NCBI GenBank assembly: GCA_016928835.1
Contig: JAFGJW010000001.1
Coordinates: 86,306-150,305, forward strand
Length of the DNA: 64,000 nucleotides
Origin: Candidatus Woesearchaeota archaeon
GTDB lineage: Archaea; Nanobdellota; Nanobdellia; Woesearchaeales; GW2011-AR15
Direction of reading: 5' to 3'
The position numbers and the translations under genes were made by a program. This document shows positions 7,385 through 49,990 of the stretch, piece by piece. Position 1 is the first letter of the stretch, and every line of letters begins with the position of its first letter. Under the pieces are notes generated by a model. The model was not told the origin of the DNA. It did not search any database and was given only the letters and a program-made list of their open reading frames with translations.

Positions 7385-8968
7385 ATGGGGGTTATAGAGC
7401 TCAGCAATAGACTGATGTATTATAAGAGAAAAGAGATTCAAGAGGCAATTGTCCAGAGTTGCAGGAACCGAGAAGTTGGTGTAAGATACGGGGACAAGGG
7501 ATTTGGAAAAAGACCTGATACTTTGGAATACCCCGGTGATGCTTTAGAATTGGCTAAAAAAGGGGCTACAAGTTTCCATGTTTCAGAGGAGAGATGGTCA
7601 AATCCGTTGCATTTGGAGCCAATGATGAAAAAAAGTACACTTGACATGCTGAGAACGGGATGGGACCTTGTTTTGGATATTGATTGTCCTTACTGGAATT
7701 TTAGTAAATTAACTGCGCATTTGTTTGTAAAGGCATTAAAAGCACATGGAATACATTCAGTAACCTGCAAGTTTTCTGGTAACAAGGGTTTTCATATTGG
7801 TGTGCCTTTTGAAGCATTTCCAGAGCATATTGGTGAAATAGCCTTTAAGGATTGGTTTCCAGAGGGTCCTAAACGGATAGCACTTTATCTCCTTGCATAT
7901 ATCGGAGAGAGATTGGTACGTGTTGAGAATGAAGACATCATTTTTGATAACAAAGTAAAAGTGCCTATATCAAACCTGATTAGAACAACAGGAAAAGAAA
8001 TGGAAGAAATAACAAAGATAAAATGTAAAGACTGCGGCAAGGAAATATCTAATCTAGTTACTCCAAAAACAGAATTCGTGTGTCCAAGATGCGAGCTAAG
8101 ATTGTTTGATGATAGCAAATTCAAGCAGTGTCCCAAATGTAAAATAATCATGACAAAAAGTTTTTCGCAGAAACCTGTATGCAAGTGTGGTTCTTATGAA
8201 TACTCTGTTGAATTTGATGCTTTGGTTATTATGAATGTTGATACATTATTAATATCCTCGAGACATATGTACCGCTCGCCCTACAGTTTACATGAAAAAT
8301 CTGGATTGGTGTCTTTACCGATCCACCTTGACAACATTATAAGCTTCGCAAAAGAACAGGCAAAACCTGGGAACATTAATGTGGCAAGAAATCCTACCTT
8401 TCTGGATACGAGAAACACAACATCAGAGGAAGGTAAGGTGCTCCTGATCCAGGCATTTGACTTCGCTGCAGCAGACAAAATCCTTCCGCATAAGAAAATA
8501 TTAAGAAACACAAAATATGAGCTGATTGACTCCATACAAATTCCAATGGAACTATTTCCACCTTGCATGCTCAACATACTTAAAGGACTAGATGACGGAA
8601 GGAAGAGAGCTTTATTTTCATTGCTGAATTTTCTGCAGAGTGTGGGTTGGTATGATAATCAAGTGGCAGAATTAATCCATGACTGGAATAAAAAAAACAC
8701 AGAACCATTAAGAGAGACATATATGAAAACCCATATTAATTACCACCTAAAAAAAAAAGATAAAATACCCCCTCCAAACTGCCGCAGTTATTATCAAGAT
8801 CTTGGTGTCTGTGTTCCTGATGCACTATGTGATAAAATCAAGAATCCAATTAATTATTCTAGAATAAAAGCAGGTTCTTTTAAAAAAAAAGGAGGAAAAA
8901 GGAAATTAACTAAAGATCAAAAAGAGATGCGCAGAAAATATAGAGAAAAATTAAAAAATAATAAATAA
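7385..8968 (+). CDS. DNA primase: PriS catalytic domain fused to a PriL-type Fe-S C-terminal domain
   Basis: PriS motifs LVLDIDC (catalytic DxD) and FSGNKGFHIGVP (SGxxGxH), with internal zinc knuckles (CKDCGK...CPRCE, CPKCK...CKCG). The C-terminal 150 aa carries the FPPCM motif plus three more Cys (NCRS, GVCVPDALC), consistent with the 4Fe-4S PriL-CTD. Confidence 0.7.
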   Translation: MGVIELSNRLMYYKRKEIQEAIVQSCRNREVGVRYGDKGFGKRPDTLEYPGDALELAKKGATSFHVSEERWSNPLHLEPMMKKSTLDMLRTGWDLVLDIDCPYWNFSKLTAHLFVKALKAHGIHSVTCKFSGNKGFHIGVPFEAFPEHIGEIAFKDWFPEGPKRIALYLLAYIGERLVRVENEDIIFDNKVKVPISNLIRTTGKEMEEITKIKCKDCGKEISNLVTPKTEFVCPRCELRLFDDSKFKQCPKCKIIMTKSFSQKPVCKCGSYEYSVEFDALVIMNVDTLLISSRHMYRSPYSLHEKSGLVSLPIHLDNIISFAKEQAKPGNINVARNPTFLDTRNTTSEEGKVLLIQAFDFAAADKILPHKKILRNTKYELIDSIQIPMELFPPCMLNILKGLDDGRKRALFSLLNFLQSVGWYDNQVAELIHDWNKKNTEPLRETYMKTHINYHLKKKDKIPPPNCRSYYQDLGVCVPDALCDKIKNPINYSRIKAGSFKKKGGKRKLTKDQKEMRRKYREKLKNNK

Positions 8969-23389: not shown

Positions 23390-24526
23390 TTATTCATATC
23401 TTGTTAATTGATTGCCCCTCATAACAAAAAACGGCCTTTGTGGGAATCCTAATTGTTTATTTTCGCTTCTTCTGGTTTCATATAGGCGATTTTGGGTTAT
23501 AGCGGTCCTTATAGGGATAGTAGTCTTATCACCAGTATCCCAAAGAAAAAATTCACATTCTTGTGGATTCCTTCCTAGAGGTAGCTTGGCATCACCTCTC
23601 CTGATTAACATATCAGCATAGGCTCCAAGACTTAAGACTCTTAATGTTGGTGTGTATTCTGGTTCTTTCGCCCATCTTTCAATAGCCGATTTCTCCAAGT
23701 AAAGTATACTTCCTGGGCCATTTCCTTGTGACAATTGGTGTAATTCTATCACTTTTCTTCTCATTAGGGTCTCATAAACCCATCTACCTAGACATTGCCC
23801 ATAGCATTTAACACTTAATCTTTCAGCATCACGAAAAACACTATTATTCTCCTCAGTTCTTATCCTGTCCAACACAGACAAGTCCAGACCGCCAATATCA
23901 AATCCTATAACATTATGTTTTTGACAAATTTGTTCAATTGACGCATCGAGTTCGCTGAGTGTTAAATCCCCCCGATTAAGACCAGCTGATGCAGGAAAAT
24001 TCTTAATAACATCGAGATCAACACTAATTTGCAAGGTCGATCTTGCCAACCCAACAATACTACCTCGACCTATATGTGCTTCTTCGCTAATACCCTCGGT
24101 GCATGATGGATCTCTAGTAGCAACAGCAACTAATTGGGTGCCAAATATTGTTTCAATAAGCTGAATGTTTTTATTTTGCAGCAGTAAAGCAGAAGCGTGA
24201 TTAGTGCAATCAACAATTCGTTGCTCTCTTGCAGCAGAAAGACAAAAATCAGTATGGGCGTCAAAAGCAGCTTTATAAAAGTCCATTTTAGGAGTTATTA
24301 ATAGTGAGAGATGGTGCCAAAATCCAGTTCCCCATATCAAACCACAATATTCTGGAAATTCTTCCTCTAATGGATGTGTAATTGAAAGTCCCTTGATAAC
24401 AACCTGATCAAGAGGCAACTCTCTAAACTCTACATTTTGGCGAAAGAAGGAATCCCTATTTAAAGCAGCAACAATATATTGTGATTCAGGTTGGTCTGTA
24501 TAATATACAACTACTTTCTCTGACAT
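23390..24526 (-). CDS. ureohydrolase (arginase/agmatinase)-fold protein, divergent
   Basis: A DAHTD motif and a downstream GFDIGGLD block resemble the arginase metal-ligand motifs (DAHTD; SFDVDGLDP), but one Asp is replaced by Gly. The gene is visibly more GC-rich and Arg/Gln-rich than its neighbours. Confidence 0.4.
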   Translation of the reverse strand: MSEKVVVYYTDQPESQYIVAALNRDSFFRQNVEFRELPLDQVVIKGLSITHPLEEEFPEYCGLIWGTGFWHHLSLLITPKMDFYKAAFDAHTDFCLSAAREQRIVDCTNHASALLLQNKNIQLIETIFGTQLVAVATRDPSCTEGISEEAHIGRGSIVGLARSTLQISVDLDVIKNFPASAGLNRGDLTLSELDASIEQICQKHNVIGFDIGGLDLSVLDRIRTEENNSVFRDAERLSVKCYGQCLGRWVYETLMRRKVIELHQLSQGNGPGSILYLEKSAIERWAKEPEYTPTLRVLSLGAYADMLIRRGDAKLPLGRNPQECEFFLWDTGDKTTIPIRTAITQNRLYETRRSENKQLGFPQRPFFVMRGNQLTRYE

Positions 24527-46031: not shown

Positions 46032-46097
46032 AACTAGTTTCAAAATAACAATTCTAATACTCTTTTACAATGGGGTATACTCACTTTGTTCGTAATA

Positions 46098-46177
46098 CGT
46101 GAATTCTTTGAATTCACGACATAGCCCCCTTGAACCCCCCTACGTCGCTGGGAGAGCGCGAGAACGCCAGTTCTCGC
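46098..46177. other. GC-rich element with two perfect hairpins (CGTGAATTC-TTT-GAATTCACG at 46098-46118; GCGAGAAC-GCCA-GTTCTCGC at 46158-46177) and a C-rich spacer
   Basis: Read directly. The block is about 60% GC in an otherwise approx 30% GC intergenic region and is followed by TTATTAAAATTT. It sits 90 nt upstream of the tRNA promoter. Confidence 0.3.
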
Positions 46178-46231
46178 TTATTAAAATTTAATCTTATTAT
46201 AGGTGTTGTATTTATTTAAAAGTTCTATTCA

Positions 46232-46269: not shown

Positions 46270-46356
46270 GCCTCGGTAGCTTAGCGGTAGAGCACACGAC
46301 TGTTAAAAAAAGGTGCTGACATCGTGCGGTCGCCAGTTCGATCCTGGCCCGAGGCG
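46270..46356 (+). tRNA. tRNA-Asn (GUU) containing a 15-nt intron at the canonical 37/38 position
   Basis: Manual fold of the exon parts: acceptor GCCUCGG/CCGAGGC, D arm GCUU-AGCGGUA-GAGC, anticodon stem CACGA/UCGUG with loop CUGUUA, variable CGGUC, T arm GCCAG-UUCGAUC-CUGGC, discriminator G, no encoded CCA. A 15-nt insert (approx 46306-46320) lies after position 37. Confidence 0.8.
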
Positions 46357-46360
46357 TGTT

Positions 46361-47293
46361 TTATAATCCCATTCCACATTTGAATGCTGCTTTTCTTAAT
46401 TCCTGCTCGATTTCAACTAATTGTTCTCCTGAACCAGGAACCCAGACTTCGGGATCTTCACTTAAATACAGTGTCCATTCGTTAACTAGTTGTTGCATTG
46501 GGCTGATTATTTCTCCCGAAAAGAGTTCCTCAATCACAAATCTTAGTACATCCTCAGGCAGATTTTTATAGTCTATATATCGGGCAATCCTTGGGTTTAG
46601 ACTTATGTTATATGTTTCTGTAATATAACTTCTTGTTCTAGGATCCAGCCTAAATCCTAGATCTGTAGGGAGGTTGAGTCTTGAAACAAGATTTATAACT
46701 CGCACAATGGATGCTTCAGGCCGATCTTCCTCAGGATTCATAAGCCATATTCGTCGCTCTCTTGTTCCTTCAAATGCACAATAGGAGTATACTCTTCCAG
46801 TTCGTAAATCATATGCTATTGAAGATACGTTTATATCACATCCCTGTAATGCATGAGAGAGATCTCTTCTGCCGTCTGGACCAACAAAACTTGAAAACTT
46901 CGTTATATCTATTTCTACTCCATCTATTTCCCATTTTACATTACCAAAAAAATTGGTTTTTATCTCTCCTGGTAAATTGGAACAAAGTGCGAATAGGTCA
47001 ATTTCAGTTCCAGAATCATCAAGGATTAAATCAAGGTCTCTTGGTGTGTAAGGTCTTCTGTACCAATGGAAAATAAGTGCATCCCTAATAGTACCTCCGA
47101 ATTCATATAGTTTAACCTGTGTTGGTCGTCCAATAATTTTACTTCTTTGTTCATATCTTCGCACTTCTTGAAGAAATAGTTCTAGATAAGGTTGAAGTCC
47201 CGACCTTCTTCTTACATCTTCTATTGTCCTAGCTAGTTCTGGAGCGTCAAGATATTGAAGTGGTTCCGGTACCAGATACTGGCTTCCTCGCAT
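46361..47293 (-). CDS. Pol-beta-superfamily nucleotidyltransferase with class-II tRNA-NT/poly(A)-polymerase-type head motifs
   Basis: FGGTIRDALI...PRDLDLILDD matches GGxVRD...DxD of class II CCA/PAP heads. A downstream GRRDLSHAL...DINVSSIAYD resembles the RRD(F/L)TINA motif. Arg-rich rather than Lys-rich; 310 aa is shorter than canonical CCA enzymes. The stop abuts the tRNA-Asn 3' end. Confidence 0.5.
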   Translation of the reverse strand: MRGSQYLVPEPLQYLDAPELARTIEDVRRRSGLQPYLELFLQEVRRYEQRSKIIGRPTQVKLYEFGGTIRDALIFHWYRRPYTPRDLDLILDDSGTEIDLFALCSNLPGEIKTNFFGNVKWEIDGVEIDITKFSSFVGPDGRRDLSHALQGCDINVSSIAYDLRTGRVYSYCAFEGTRERRIWLMNPEEDRPEASIVRVINLVSRLNLPTDLGFRLDPRTRSYITETYNISLNPRIARYIDYKNLPEDVLRFVIEELFSGEIISPMQQLVNEWTLYLSEDPEVWVPGSGEQLVEIEQELRKAAFKCGMGL

Positions 47294-47368
47294 TTTCCAA
47301 TAGAGTGAACAGAGGTTATATTTAAATTCTAGTTGGAATATTTTTTAGAGAAGTATTATTTTAAATAA

Positions 47369-48196
47369 CTAATACCCTTCTAATTTCCTTTGCTTGCCTT
47401 TAGATGAAGATGGGCTTATAGCCATCCCATCTTTTGCAGCAATAGTGTGCACTCCAGTTTGTTTCTGTATCTCTCTTGCTTCGTATAATGGATCAGCCTT
47501 CAGCATTTTGATACCAAAGTGTGTGATAATTGCTAATTGTGGTTTTATCTTCTCAATAAGCTTCACAGCATCATCTGTGTTTAGATTATCTTTTGATTCG
47601 TTATTTGTTGGGTTTACAACATTCAGAATGAGAATATCAATATCTTTAAACTCGTTCACCAAATTTGAAAAATATTCTGTGTCAGAAGTGTATCCAATGC
47701 TAACTCTCGGAGTGTTAAACCTAAAACCGACACCTTTTTTGTCAAGATGTTTTGTTTCAGTTGCTCTAATATCTATATTCTCTATTCCAGCTAACGTGCC
47801 CTTTTCAAGGGTTATGTACTTTTCAACGCAGTGCCTGTAAAAATCCTTGAGAAAAGGCTCATCATTTTCACTTCCAAACAAAACGCTCTTGCTTGCGCAT
47901 AAAACTCCTTTTTTATCAAGGCCGTTATGGGTCATGGCACTTATCACAGCATTGACATCATTAGCATGTATAATGTGGTTGTGGGAAACAAATACTGCTG
48001 TATTTTCCCGTAGATTTATCCCCTGCATCTTGGCCATTACCAGGGCACCAGGGCCCGGGTCAATGTGAAATTGCTTGCTTTCCAGATTAAATATTATGCC
48101 TCCAGAAGCCCTGTATTGTTTTCCGCAGACAATAGAGTCTCCAGCAGTGCCAAGAAAAACAATGCTATCCCCCATACAACTAATAAATGATAACAA
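47369..48196 (-). CDS. MBL-fold metallo-hydrolase with non-canonical metal motif (SHNHIIH)
   Basis: N-terminal IVFLGTAGDS (beta-lactamase-fold start), SHNHIIHAND in place of HxHxDH, and a C-terminal ITHFG. The probable start is the internal Met (MGDSIVFLG). Confidence 0.5.
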   Translation of the reverse strand: MLSFISCMGDSIVFLGTAGDSIVCGKQYRASGGIIFNLESKQFHIDPGPGALVMAKMQGINLRENTAVFVSHNHIIHANDVNAVISAMTHNGLDKKGVLCASKSVLFGSENDEPFLKDFYRHCVEKYITLEKGTLAGIENIDIRATETKHLDKKGVGFRFNTPRVSIGYTSDTEYFSNLVNEFKDIDILILNVVNPTNNESKDNLNTDDAVKLIEKIKPQLAIITHFGIKMLKADPLYEAREIQKQTGVHTIAAKDGMAISPSSSKGKQRKLEGY

Positions 48197-48229: not shown

Positions 48230-49990
48230 TTAGTCTCTGGCTGATTTCTCGCTATCCCAAATATGCTTTTGGTTATCTTCTCTCTTTACAAGAAATTTGT
48301 CAATAACAAGGTAATCTATCCCTGTGCCCATCATGCACCTGTAAGCATCATAAGGCGTGCATACAATCGGCTCTCCTCTGATATTGAATGAGGTATTGAT
48401 CAATATTGGTATCTTGCCTAATTTGCCAAACTCTTTTATTAAATCATAATACAAAGGATTCTGGCTTCTTCTTATTGTTTGGAGTCTTCCTGAACCGTCT
48501 ATATGCGTTACAGATGGAATTTTCTTATGCCACTTTTTTTTGACGGGATATACCATAAGCATAAAGTCTGTTGGTGCAGGTACTGGTTTGTCACATTCAA
48601 AATATTCTAGAGCGTCATCTTCGCATACCACTGGGGCAAAAGGACGGAACTTTTCCCTGTGCTTTACTTTCAGGTTGAGCAGATCCTGGGCCTCAGGGTT
48701 GCATGGATTGGCAAGTATGCTCCTTGAGCCAAGTGCCCTTGGTCCCCATTCCATCCTCCCTTGGAACCAGCCAATAACATTGTTTTGAAGAATTAGTTTT
48801 GCGGTTTTCTGAATTAACTCCTGCCTGTTTTTGAATATATTATATTTAATTTTGTTGTTTTCTAGAAACCTCTTAATCTCTGTTTTAGAATAAGAAGGTC
48901 CTAGAAAGGCATTATCCTGGATGTATGTTCTCTTATTCCTAAGGAGCGTGTAGTAAATGTAAGACACAACACCAATGCTTGTACCAGCATCTCCTGCAGC
49001 TGGTTGTATCCAGACATTTTTAAATGCAGTTTGCTGCAGAATCTTGCCGTTTGCAACACTGTTTAATCCGCACCCTCCTGCTATTGTAATATTCTCACAT
49101 TCTGTTTCTTTATGCACATAATTCAGCATTTTTGTAAACACTTCTTCATAGATTAGTTGAAGAGCAGCAGCAATATCCTTGTGTCTTTGTGTTAGTTTTT
49201 CAGAATACTGCCTTACACCCCCGCCAAGTAATTTACATAATTTCCTAGAAGGCATTCTGTCTGCGTATTGATATACAAAATAACTCATATCCAAATAATA
49301 ACTCCCGTCGTCTTTTATGTCAATTACTTTTTTCAATCTCCTATAATAAGTGTTGGTTCTTGAGTTCTTATTGCCATAGGCCGAGAGCCCCATGACCTTA
49401 TACTCTGAGTTGTTAACCTTAAAGCCGAGATAGGCAGTTATCGCAGAGTAAAGCAAGCCAAGAGAATGAGGAAACCTGATTTCTTTCATTAAATTTATTT
49501 CATTTGCATCCCCGGCACCATATGATGTGGTGGTCCATTCTCCAACACCATCTACTGTTAATATTGCCGCTTTTTTAAAAGGGCTAACCAAAAAACAGCT
49601 TGCGGCGTGAGCAAGATGATGCTGAATAAAAAGTACATCCCCTTTATATTTCAATTCCTTTTTAATCTTTTTAGTGACTCTTAGCTTATCATTCACCCAT
49701 GAAGGCATTGAACTCAGAAATGTCTTAAGACTATGTGGAAAAAACTGCAGGTGCTGAGACAGCACTCTCTCGAATTTCAGAAGGGGTTTCTCATAGAAAC
49801 CAATATAACTTAGCTTGTTGGCAGAAATGCCCTGGCTTTGCAGACAATATTTGATTGCATTTACAGGAAAAGAAGTATCATGTTTTTTTCTAGTGAAACG
49901 TTCTTCTTCTGCAGCTGCCACAATTTTTCCGTCTTTCAACAATGCAGCTGAGGAATCATGATAGTAACAGCTTATTCCTAAAATGTACAT
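48230..49990 (-). CDS. NodU/CmcH-family carbamoyltransferase
   Basis: Near-canonical N-terminus (MYILGISCYYHDSSAALLKDGKIVAAAEEERFTRKKHDTSFP) and a 586-aa two-domain layout (Kae1-like N-terminal, carbamoyltransferase C-terminal). Confidence 0.85.
   Translation of the reverse strand: MYILGISCYYHDSSAALLKDGKIVAAAEEERFTRKKHDTSFPVNAIKYCLQSQGISANKLSYIGFYEKPLLKFERVLSQHLQFFPHSLKTFLSSMPSWVNDKLRVTKKIKKELKYKGDVLFIQHHLAHAASCFLVSPFKKAAILTVDGVGEWTTTSYGAGDANEINLMKEIRFPHSLGLLYSAITAYLGFKVNNSEYKVMGLSAYGNKNSRTNTYYRRLKKVIDIKDDGSYYLDMSYFVYQYADRMPSRKLCKLLGGGVRQYSEKLTQRHKDIAAALQLIYEEVFTKMLNYVHKETECENITIAGGCGLNSVANGKILQQTAFKNVWIQPAAGDAGTSIGVVSYIYYTLLRNKRTYIQDNAFLGPSYSKTEIKRFLENNKIKYNIFKNRQELIQKTAKLILQNNVIGWFQGRMEWGPRALGSRSILANPCNPEAQDLLNLKVKHREKFRPFAPVVCEDDALEYFECDKPVPAPTDFMLMVYPVKKKWHKKIPSVTHIDGSGRLQTIRRSQNPLYYDLIKEFGKLGKIPILINTSFNIRGEPIVCTPYDAYRCMMGTGIDYLVIDKFLVKREDNQKHIWDSEKSARD

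Follow-up and report, generated by a model that had tools for sequence, protein, structure and literature searches.

A stretch of 64,000 nucleotides (nt) from a Candidatus Woesearchaeota archaeon (contig JAFGJW010000001.1, positions 86,306 to 150,305; hereafter the window, numbered from its first letter) encodes on its minus strand a protein of 310 amino acids (aa) that carries the head motifs of class II tRNA nucleotidyltransferases (NTases), the bacterial and eukaryotic type of CCA-adding enzyme and poly(A) polymerase (PAP). The gene lies between a tRNA gene and a gene for a hydrolase of the metallo-β-lactamase (MBL) fold. What does such a small class II-type protein do in an archaeon, and do the three neighbors form a functional unit? 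A sequence-only reading of this DNA had proposed a module for tRNA-end repair or modification, or else a horizontally acquired defense or nucleotide-signaling module. We favor, with somewhat more confidence than doubt, a different joint answer: the protein would be a class II-derived NTase reduced to head and neck that tails or repairs RNA 3' ends, would not be a CCA enzyme, and would have neighbors unrelated to it.

Searched by itself, the 310-aa protein (NCBI name 'hypothetical protein JW930_00825', Candidatus Woesearchaeota archaeon) had no match at E ≤ 1 in Pfam, NCBIfam, PADLOC or the PDB sequences and none in PHROGs, and a word-indexed homology search recovered only its identical self. 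An exhaustive phmmer search of 1.84 billion representative sequences, with the family counted in clusters at 50% identity, yielded 73 homologs at E ≤ 1e-3 and 33 at E ≤ 1e-10; the best non-self match reached 5.8e-40 at 40% identity. Homologs in this number, and a non-self match of this strength, indicated that the 310-aa open reading frame (ORF) is a real gene. It and the MBL ORF (275 aa) were both found where the sequence-only reading had placed them, at 46361-47293 and 47369-48196, respectively (both on the minus strand). Nearly all of the homologs are ~240 aa long, the matched part covers approximately residues 57–257 of the query, and the named ones are all hypothetical proteins of Woesearchaeota or Nanoarchaeia. 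One longer but close relative from Woesearchaeota, P0127 (locus L005, 2773-4005; 410 aa; 43% identity over the matched stretch by phmmer), carries ~170 additional residues at its N-terminus; this region matches nothing in Pfam and may be an added substrate-binding domain.

We aligned 62 family sequences (alignment A1; median length ~243 aa). The near-invariant columns were G66, G67, R70, D86, D88 and D129, and together they make up the signature of a Pol-beta NTase. Compared with the PDB, the A1 profile matched the T. maritima CCA-adding enzyme (TmCCA, 3H37) at 2.3e-18, the Aquifex A-adding enzyme at 6.3e-17, the B. stearothermophilus CCA enzyme at 4.3e-15 and E. coli PAP I at 1.9e-13; 20 class II sequences fell between 2.3e-18 and 1e-5, and no others scored below 0.5. 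The word-indexed search run with the family profile gave an output dominated by canonical CCA/PAP enzymes. PF01743 was matched by 23/62 family members at E ≤ 0.01, and the few members with any NCBIfam or PHROGs match hit only PcnB, CCA or tRNA-NTase models.

The predicted fold agreed with the profile. An AlphaFold (AF2) model built from A1 had a predicted local distance difference test score (pLDDT) of 89.2 and a predicted template modeling (TM) score of 0.82; a single-sequence run gave a pLDDT of 36. The 46 best Foldseek matches in the PDB were all class II CCA-, A- or CC-adding enzymes or PAP I, with query-normalized TM scores of ~0.45–0.5. After them came TENT5/FAM46 (1.6e-3) and HalB (2.3e-2, probability 0.38), and neither kanamycin NTase (KNTase)/minimal NTase (MNT) folds nor CD-NTase folds were present among the best 50. 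By profile and modeled fold, then, the 310-aa protein is identified as a class II (PolyA_pol-head type) Pol-beta nucleotidyltransferase, and the model supports that it is neither KNTase/MNT-like nor CD-NTase-like; the concern, voiced in the sequence-only reading, that it might match another Pol-beta subfamily was not borne out.

We then compared the family, column by column, with 45 canonical class II enzymes, using the numbering of the window protein. The features concerned are the following.

46361..47293, minus strand: gene of the 310-aa NTase, JW930_00825, recognized from its ORF, homologs and fold
46523..47125, minus strand: conserved head and neck core, residues 57–257, common to the ~240-aa family (phmmer and profile)
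47081..47098, minus strand: GGTIRD, residues 66–71, the Gly pair and Arg of motif A
47015..47038, minus strand: DLDLILDD, residues 86–93, the catalytic DxD and the family-specific acidic pair D92-D93
46904..46915, minus strand: EIDI, residues 127–130, with the third catalytic carboxylate, D129
46820..46843, minus strand: GCDINVSS, residues 151–158, the equivalent of motif B (RRDFTIN), both Arg and the Asn being lost
46694..46732, minus strand: EEDRPEASIVRVI, residues 188–200, the equivalent of neck motif D, with P192/S195 in place of the base-templating Asp/Arg
46364..46522, minus strand: C-terminal extension, residues 258–310, two predicted helices (pLDDT 54–73)

Results showed that the catalytic residues are kept. 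The GGTIRD and DLDLILDD segments, which had been recognized from the sequence as class II head motifs, lie on near-invariant columns of the family: G66 is conserved at 98%, G67 at 97% and R70 at 94%, and D86 and D88 at 98% each, all of them being at 100% in the canonical enzymes. D129 (92%) aligns to a column that is Glu or Asp in canonical enzymes (E 58%, D 42%), and all three carboxylates are retained in 58/62 members. The acidic pair that follows the DxD belongs to the family (D92 74%, D93 68%); canonical enzymes have Ala or Gly at position 93.

In contrast, the residues of motifs B, C and D are largely replaced. The Arg-Arg-Asp of motif B, at 100% in each canonical position, has become Gly, Ser or Thr, then Cys (45%), then Asp (74%) in the family, and reads G151-C152-D153 in the window protein; the motif B Asn at position 157 (canonical 100%) is Ser in 52% of members. 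The sequence-only reading had likened an RRD and a downstream DINV to RRDFTINA. The DINV part held, and the true equivalent of the RRD is G151-C152-D153. The RRD at residues 142–144 was rejected as motif B by the alignment, in which it is out of register and unconserved. Position 134 changes from Arg (100%) to Ser (58%), and the Asp and Gly of motif C (positions 170 and 173, 100% each) become Ser or Asp and Ala (71%), respectively. In the neck, the canonical Asp at position 192 (100%) is most often Pro (53%), the Arg at 195 (100%) is Leu, Thr or Ser, and the Arg at 201 (98%) is Leu in 48%. Two neck elements persist: R198, at 100% in canonical enzymes, is Arg (79%) or Lys (15%) in the family, and the LGF segment is conserved in both groups. 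Only one of the 62 members, P0185, a canonical-type outlier of 374 aa, keeps both the RR and the D..R. The family has conserved residues of its own at D92/D93, N114, K120, W121, S134 and Y161.

The domain make-up is also reduced. The A1 profile aligns to TmCCA residues 29–232 (of 441); the alignment stops near residue 232, and there is neither a body nor a tail domain, in keeping with the remark that the 310-aa protein is too short for a canonical CCA enzyme. In TmCCA the neck residues D174 and R177 (EDxxR) template CTP and ATP, and in enzymes of class II the body and tail bind the tRNA acceptor and T-arm (PMC3925840). Judged from its conserved columns, the family keeps the chemistry but has given up the nucleotide template as well as the tRNA ruler. 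The window protein has two further peculiarities: 13 residues inserted in its N-terminal helix, and the 53-residue C-terminal extension, which is found in this protein only and has no counterpart in the closest homologs.

We propose an origin of the family in the tRNA-nucleotidyltransferase/poly(A)-polymerase lineage of class II (bacterial/eukaryotic), with head and neck alone retained. Because the catalytic carboxylates, the GG..R of motif A and several basic neck residues are conserved, the protein is most likely an active two-metal nucleotidyltransferase, which would transfer NMP from NTP onto a hydroxyl. By descent, the acceptor would most probably be an RNA 3'-OH, as in all characterized relatives. 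The nucleotide pocket would have been rebuilt, with no built-in measuring of tRNA, and the enzyme would serve in accessory, template-independent tailing or repair of RNA 3' ends; its nucleotide specificity would be a different and perhaps relaxed one, set by the family-specific residues D92/D93, N114, K120, W121, S134 and Y161. The genes of the family are stand-alone and sporadic, and eight loci showed eight different contexts: between ribosomal S7 and S12, by S3Ae and a ferredoxin, by ELP3, by a class I aminoacyl-tRNA synthetase (aaRS), between SRP54 and threonyl-tRNA synthetase (ThrRS), by CoA-transferases, by a Cas4-like gene, and by trigger factor. Translation genes are often among these neighbors (S7/S12, S3Ae, ELP3, class I aaRS, SRP54/ThrRS), which gives a weak hint of an RNA-related role.

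Is the protein instead a miniaturized class II CCA- (or A-/CC-) adding enzyme that stands in for the archaeal class I enzyme? The adjoining tRNA-Asn gene encodes no CCA, TGT coming next, and a CCA-adding activity is therefore required; moreover, according to a 2026 preprint, class II enzymes have taken the place of class I in certain archaea, Pacearchaeota among them (bioRxiv 10.64898/2026.05.29.728689). Pfam scans of 25 window ORFs, which are part of one 64-kb piece, showed no class I CCA enzyme, a result that carries no weight either way. However, the Asp/Arg template, invariant in the 45 canonical enzymes, is missing here (P192, S195) and in 61/62 members, as are the Arg residues of the RRD and the acceptor- and T-arm-binding body and tail (PMC3925840), and the archaeal class II set of that survey was restricted by curation to full-length ORFs (bioRxiv 10.64898/2026.05.29.728689). 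With template, RRD, body and tail all lost, the selection of C, C and A or the measuring of tRNA in the class II manner would be impossible. In addition, the NTase family comprised only 73 clusters at 50% identity, against 273 matching stretches for the housekeeping MBL, which indicates that the NTase is sporadic and not essential. On these sequence grounds the 310-aa protein is very unlikely to be the CCA-adding enzyme of the cell, and we assign little probability to a miniaturized replacement. We regard as unlikely, but deserving of serious weight, that the class II scaffold was re-purposed, with the NTase acting on a non-RNA acceptor (a small molecule or a protein) or serving merely as an NTP-binding regulator. 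All of the class II residues that read the incoming nucleotide or touch the primer are replaced, the tRNA-binding domains are gone, and the family has conserved positions of its own, which fits such a change; yet every relative found by sequence or structure is an RNA 3'-end polymerase, no biosynthetic or target gene is conserved next to the NTase loci, and conservation of the triad at 92–98% argues against a non-catalytic role.

Several points weigh against the tailing and repair function that we prefer. For every family member, the acceptor substrate and the nucleotide are argued purely by analogy with relatives, and the loss of the RRD Arg and of the templating pair could mean a non-RNA acceptor or non-catalytic NTP binding. 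The window protein, with no Pfam match at E ≤ 1, lies below the PF01743 gathering threshold (23 bits); its closest subclade has no PF01743 match at E ≤ 0.1, and other members reach 15–17 bits. Given the lack of a Pfam match for the protein or its subclade, the family assignment is carried by the profile and fold evidence. Translation-related neighbors are common in any small DPANN genome. Lastly, at least two loci, L006 (trigger factor) and L009 (sigma-70 genes), look bacterial, so the family may not be restricted to DPANN. Locus L009 holds P0312, the nearest relative of the window protein by full-alignment identity (43%), which adjoins a Cas4/PD-(D/E)XK gene and shares its contig with a LigD_N gene and two sigma-70 genes; at L006, P0191 adjoins trigger factor. 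Both contigs could be of bacterial or viral origin, and the family may thus not be strictly archaeal. A bolder version of RNA tailing, which we hold only tentatively and with far more doubt than belief, is that the family forms an unrecognized archaeal class of RNA 3'-end NTases with a new pocket (D92/D93, N114, K120-W121, S134, Y161), a non-CCA specificity, and tRNA or other stable RNAs as targets in DPANN. Such enzymes would possibly find their targets through a distinct RNA-binding partner or through features of the RNA, and could even substitute for part of CCA synthesis in some lineages.

We now turn to the genes around the NTase, for which these features are needed.

46270..46356, plus strand: tRNA-Asn(GUU) gene (Rfam RF00005)
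47294..47368, minus strand: 75-nt spacer from the MBL stop to the NTase ATG, with an A/T-rich TATA-like element, ATTTAAATATA (direct reading)
47369..48175, minus strand: MBL-fold hydrolase gene, 268 aa from Met8 (Pfam Lactamase_B_2, 9.1e-16)
47966..47986, minus strand: SHNHIIH, residues 71–77, MBL motif II, in which another residue stands for the HxHxDH Asp
48230-49990, minus strand: carbamoyltransferase gene (Pfam Carbam_trans_N 1.8e-83, Carbam_trans_C 7.2e-71)

The MBL ORF as given above measures 275 aa; the start in NCBI and in the orthologs is Met8, which gives 268 aa from 48175. The sequence-only reading had drawn attention to SHNHIIH in the place of HxHxDH. The motif is indeed present, but it does not set this locus apart. 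We detected 2304 homologs of the MBL protein, of which the best 120 (52–65% identity) come from Woesearchaeota, Nanoarchaeota and unclassified archaeal metagenome-assembled genomes (MAGs). Their motif is S-H-N-H-[LI]-[N/G/Y/I/R]-H-x-N-D, with the consensus S-H-N-H-L-N-H-C-N-D; at the position of the HxHxDH Asp, 77 of the 120 have N, 15 G, 10 Y and 6 I, and D is outside the five commonest residues. H65, H67, H70, H143, D165 and H219 (268-aa numbering) are conserved at 88–98%. By this alignment, loss of the HxHxDH Asp is a trait of the whole DPANN MBL family. The protein also falls short of an RNase Z, as judged from its sequence: besides the altered HxHxDH, it scores 48.1 bits with the RNase Z model TIGR02651 (cut-off 292.95), and the region of the flexible-arm exosite (model positions 150–205) is unmatched. 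The MBL profile had only weak matches in the PDB (8GYG, 8.7e-8; BA1088/1ZKP, 4.2e-7). Orthologs carry the JGI label 'ribonuclease BN' and a precomputed Pfam match to PF23023 Anti-Pycsar_Apyc1, and their NF041851 match is weak. Compared with RNase Z/ElaC, B. anthracis BA1088 (1ZKP), the arylsulfatase-like MBL 8GYG and the Apyc1-type phosphodiesterases, the protein shares the MBL fold (PF12706) and conserves the H-x-H-x-x-H, the later His, the 'DT' Asp and the 'HFG' His, whereas the window MBL family differs from all of them in lacking the HxHxDH Asp.

In a one-genome-per-species collection, 273 stretches matched the MBL protein, and we scanned the best 80 of them with 5 kb on either side (682 kb in total). 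The conserved neighbors were signal-peptide peptidase (57/80 loci), class I aaRS (28/80) and tryptophanyl/tyrosyl-tRNA synthetase (20/80). The presenilin-type signal-peptide peptidase is the partner of the MBL gene at those 57 loci (within L014–L093), and this synteny, which is the ancestral arrangement, is broken in the window. In the closest relative, the MBL gene lies between isoleucyl-tRNA synthetase and a ROK kinase. The MBL protein is thus an atypical, widespread DPANN housekeeping hydrolase and no rarity of this locus. Many of its loci (L019, L021 and L022 among them) are in GenBank third-party-annotation MAGs titled 'uncultured Methanosarcinales archaeon' that carry a Woesearchaeota-type MBL at 50–60% identity and occur next to records with Woesearchaeota or Nanoarchaeota in the title; the former are probably mislabeled DPANN bins.

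The tRNA noted beside the NTase gene was recovered by Rfam with 57 bits (gathering score 29), and ARAGORN in default mode reported no tRNA in the window. Read from the sequence, it is a tRNA-Asn(GUU) whose 16-nt intron follows the anticodon loop, the canonical position. The tRNA and NTase genes converge, 4 nt separating the tRNA end from the NTase stop codon, and are not co-transcribed. Between a ZPR1-like gene and the tRNA lie two perfect hairpins (46098-46118 and 46158-46177) around a C-rich tract, with the arms CGTGAATTC-TTT-GAATTCACG and GCGAGAAC-GCCA-GTTCTCGC. The RNA fold of 46060-46200 had z = −3.08, and the region had no Rfam match at E ≤ 1; the hairpins could serve the ZPR1-like gene as a terminator, or they could be a small structured RNA.

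Do NTase, MBL nuclease and tRNA then make up a module for tRNA-end repair or modification? The genes are adjacent, and the NTase, MBL and carbamoyltransferase genes do share the minus strand, as had been observed; the MBL protein has its sub-threshold RNase Z similarity (48 bits against 293), and its orthologs have the 'ribonuclease BN' label. We searched the 80 MBL neighborhoods with a hidden Markov model of the NTase family (E ≤ 1e-2), which scored 9.5e-73 on the window as a positive control, and found an NTase-family ORF within 5 kb of the MBL in 0/80 loci. Conversely, 0/8 NTase-family loci had an MBL neighbor, and among the six of them scanned with Rfam no tRNA adjoined the NTase gene, the single tRNA found being 5.5 kb away. 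The conserved partner of the MBL gene is, as described above, the signal-peptide peptidase, the tRNA is convergent with the NTase gene, and a TATA-like A/T box precedes the NTase gene and the MBL gene separately; from the sequence, the element in the 75-nt spacer may be an independent promoter of the NTase gene. With no co-conservation and with separate TATA-like elements, both the gene pair and the tRNA adjacency are chance juxtapositions. The MBL hydrolase and the tRNA-Asn gene are unrelated housekeeping neighbors of the NTase, and we find the proposed module scarcely credible; its appealing layout serves as a cautionary negative lesson. The carbamoyltransferase belongs to a glycan cluster described below.

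The other proposal was a horizontally acquired module for defense or nucleotide signaling, which can be spelled out as a cassette with the NTase as signal maker and the MBL protein as an Apyc1-like phosphodiesterase, inserted at the tRNA gene. It can point to an NTase gene that abuts the tRNA 3' end, to the PF23023 Anti-Pycsar_Apyc1 and weak NF041851 matches on the MBL side, and to composition: the Arg-richness noted for the 310-aa protein is real, and its Arg fraction of Arg plus Lys, R/(R+K), of 0.79 is the highest of the 69 window ORFs, the seven neighbors compared having 0.22–0.34. However, this trait is shared by the closest NTase relatives (0.42–0.68), some members of the family reaching 0.77–0.81. 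The GC content at third codon positions (GC3) is 0.23, inside the window range of 0.21–0.39, and 16/30 Arg codons of the NTase gene are AGA, which together indicate a codon usage adapted to the host. PADLOC gave no match at E ≤ 1 for either the NTase or the MBL protein, the NTase fold matches class II RNA NTases rather than CD-NTases (HalB appearing only with the values given above), no relatives were found in IMG/VR by three single-protein scans, and the MBL gene is core and syntenic in DPANN. The tRNA 3' end (28 nt) had no repeat at ≤3 mismatches, and no integrase was present among the flanking genes scanned. The segment 46152-46173, 73% similar to the tRNA 3' end, was considered as an attachment-site copy and rejected; it is a short hairpin. 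Recent horizontal acquisition or a defense role of the NTase is therefore unsupported, and the chance that such a cassette is present is very slim. Older transfers are possible, given the patchy distribution of the family.

Elsewhere the window has genes of archaeal type, among them SecY, ZPR1, those of the mevalonate pathway and a putative fused primase. The primase is a single ORF of 527 aa (7385-8968, plus strand) with weak matches to both subunits, small and large, of the archaeal/eukaryotic DNA primase (7e-6 and 3.9e-7), which suggests a fused PriS-PriL. Right after SecY, an ORF of 378 aa (23390-24526, minus strand) has an R/(R+K) of 0.67, a GC3 of 0.26 and no Pfam match; it is the sole other long ORF of the window with a strong Arg bias, and thus a second compositionally odd orphan. 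A cluster for glycan-type biosynthesis spans ~25–50 kb (~25000-50000). It contains two GT1 glycosyltransferases, a DegT aminotransferase, a UDP-glucose dehydrogenase and a sugar NTP transferase, together with two B12-binding radical S-adenosylmethionine (SAM) enzymes, a further radical-SAM enzyme and a radical-SAM/SPASM protein, as well as an amine oxidase, a methyltransferase-like ORF and a 512-aa flippase-like multi-pass membrane protein. The cluster is surface-glycan or natural-product-like, and the NodU/CmcH-type carbamoyltransferase belongs to it, not to the MBL or the NTase.

What the NTase family adds is best seen against enzymes already known. Class II tRNA nucleotidyltransferases are a textbook example of proteins serving as their own template. 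A family that keeps the catalytic engine with neither the template (Asp/Arg, RRD) nor the tRNA ruler would show how far this scaffold can be reduced and re-specialized. It would also be a second, independent kind of class II-type enzyme in archaea. Standard annotation overlooks it, the family being largely under the Pfam and NCBIfam thresholds and its named members all being called 'hypothetical protein'; we found no description of a minimal class II NTase in DPANN or Woesearchaeota in the literature. If it is an RNA-tailing enzyme, it bears on RNA 3'-end metabolism in reduced DPANN genomes, and we expect it to be of moderate interest to specialists in tRNA nucleotidyltransferases and in DPANN.

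CCA-adding enzymes of class II (T. maritima 3H37/3H39, B. stearothermophilus 1MIV) are the best profile and structural matches of the family. They share with it the head fold and helical neck, motif A (GGxVRD...DxD) with the third carboxylate, the R..LGF neck segment, and what the family has left of motif B (DxT/NxS). They differ in having the RRD Arg, the motif-C Asp/Gly and the Asp/Arg nucleobase template, and in length, at 390–450 aa against ~240–310 aa with no body or tail; unlike them, the family is stand-alone and sporadic in DPANN archaea. The Aquifex A-adding (1VFG, 4WBY-4WC7) and CC-adding (3WFO-3WFS) enzymes and PAP I (3AQK-3AQN) were sub-functionalized or re-specialized on the same class II scaffold and match about as strongly (profile E of 6e-17 to 2e-13, Foldseek E of 1e-8 to 1e-7), but they keep the Asp/Arg template, the RRD and C-terminal RNA-binding domains, of which the NTase family keeps none. 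Among viruses, 'tRNA nucleotidyltransferase'-like proteins of phages and giant viruses (BFVD, 173–250 aa) are similarly small, head-centered and class II-like; they match at Foldseek E of 1e-7 to 1e-3 with 11–20% identity and are apparently uncharacterized. In PHROGs, phrog_2244, phrog_1614 and phrog_24229 are each matched by 4–9 of the 62 family members, and not by the window protein.

Within the archaea the relevant comparison is with full-length class II CCA enzymes ('CCA2'), which are reported from Asgard archaea and Euryarchaeota and, in DPANN, only from Pacearchaeota; a tblastn search (E ≤ 1e-5) had recovered them, curation selected full-length ORFs that match CCA-adding enzymes in size and domain structure, and the Asgard examples tested were active (bioRxiv 10.64898/2026.05.29.728689). 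The sequence-only reading was right that a class II-type NTase is present in an archaeon, and its premise that archaea use class I enzymes only is dated by that survey (bioRxiv 10.64898/2026.05.29.728689). CCA2 and the window family are alike in being class II-type NTases of archaea, with members in the DPANN class Nanoarchaeia. Unlike CCA2, however, the window family is truncated, motif-depleted and paralog-like, and a tblastn screen for full-length ORFs would miss it. A class II enzyme in an archaeon is thus no longer surprising in itself; what differs here is a family made up of head and neck only and depleted in motifs B, C and D.

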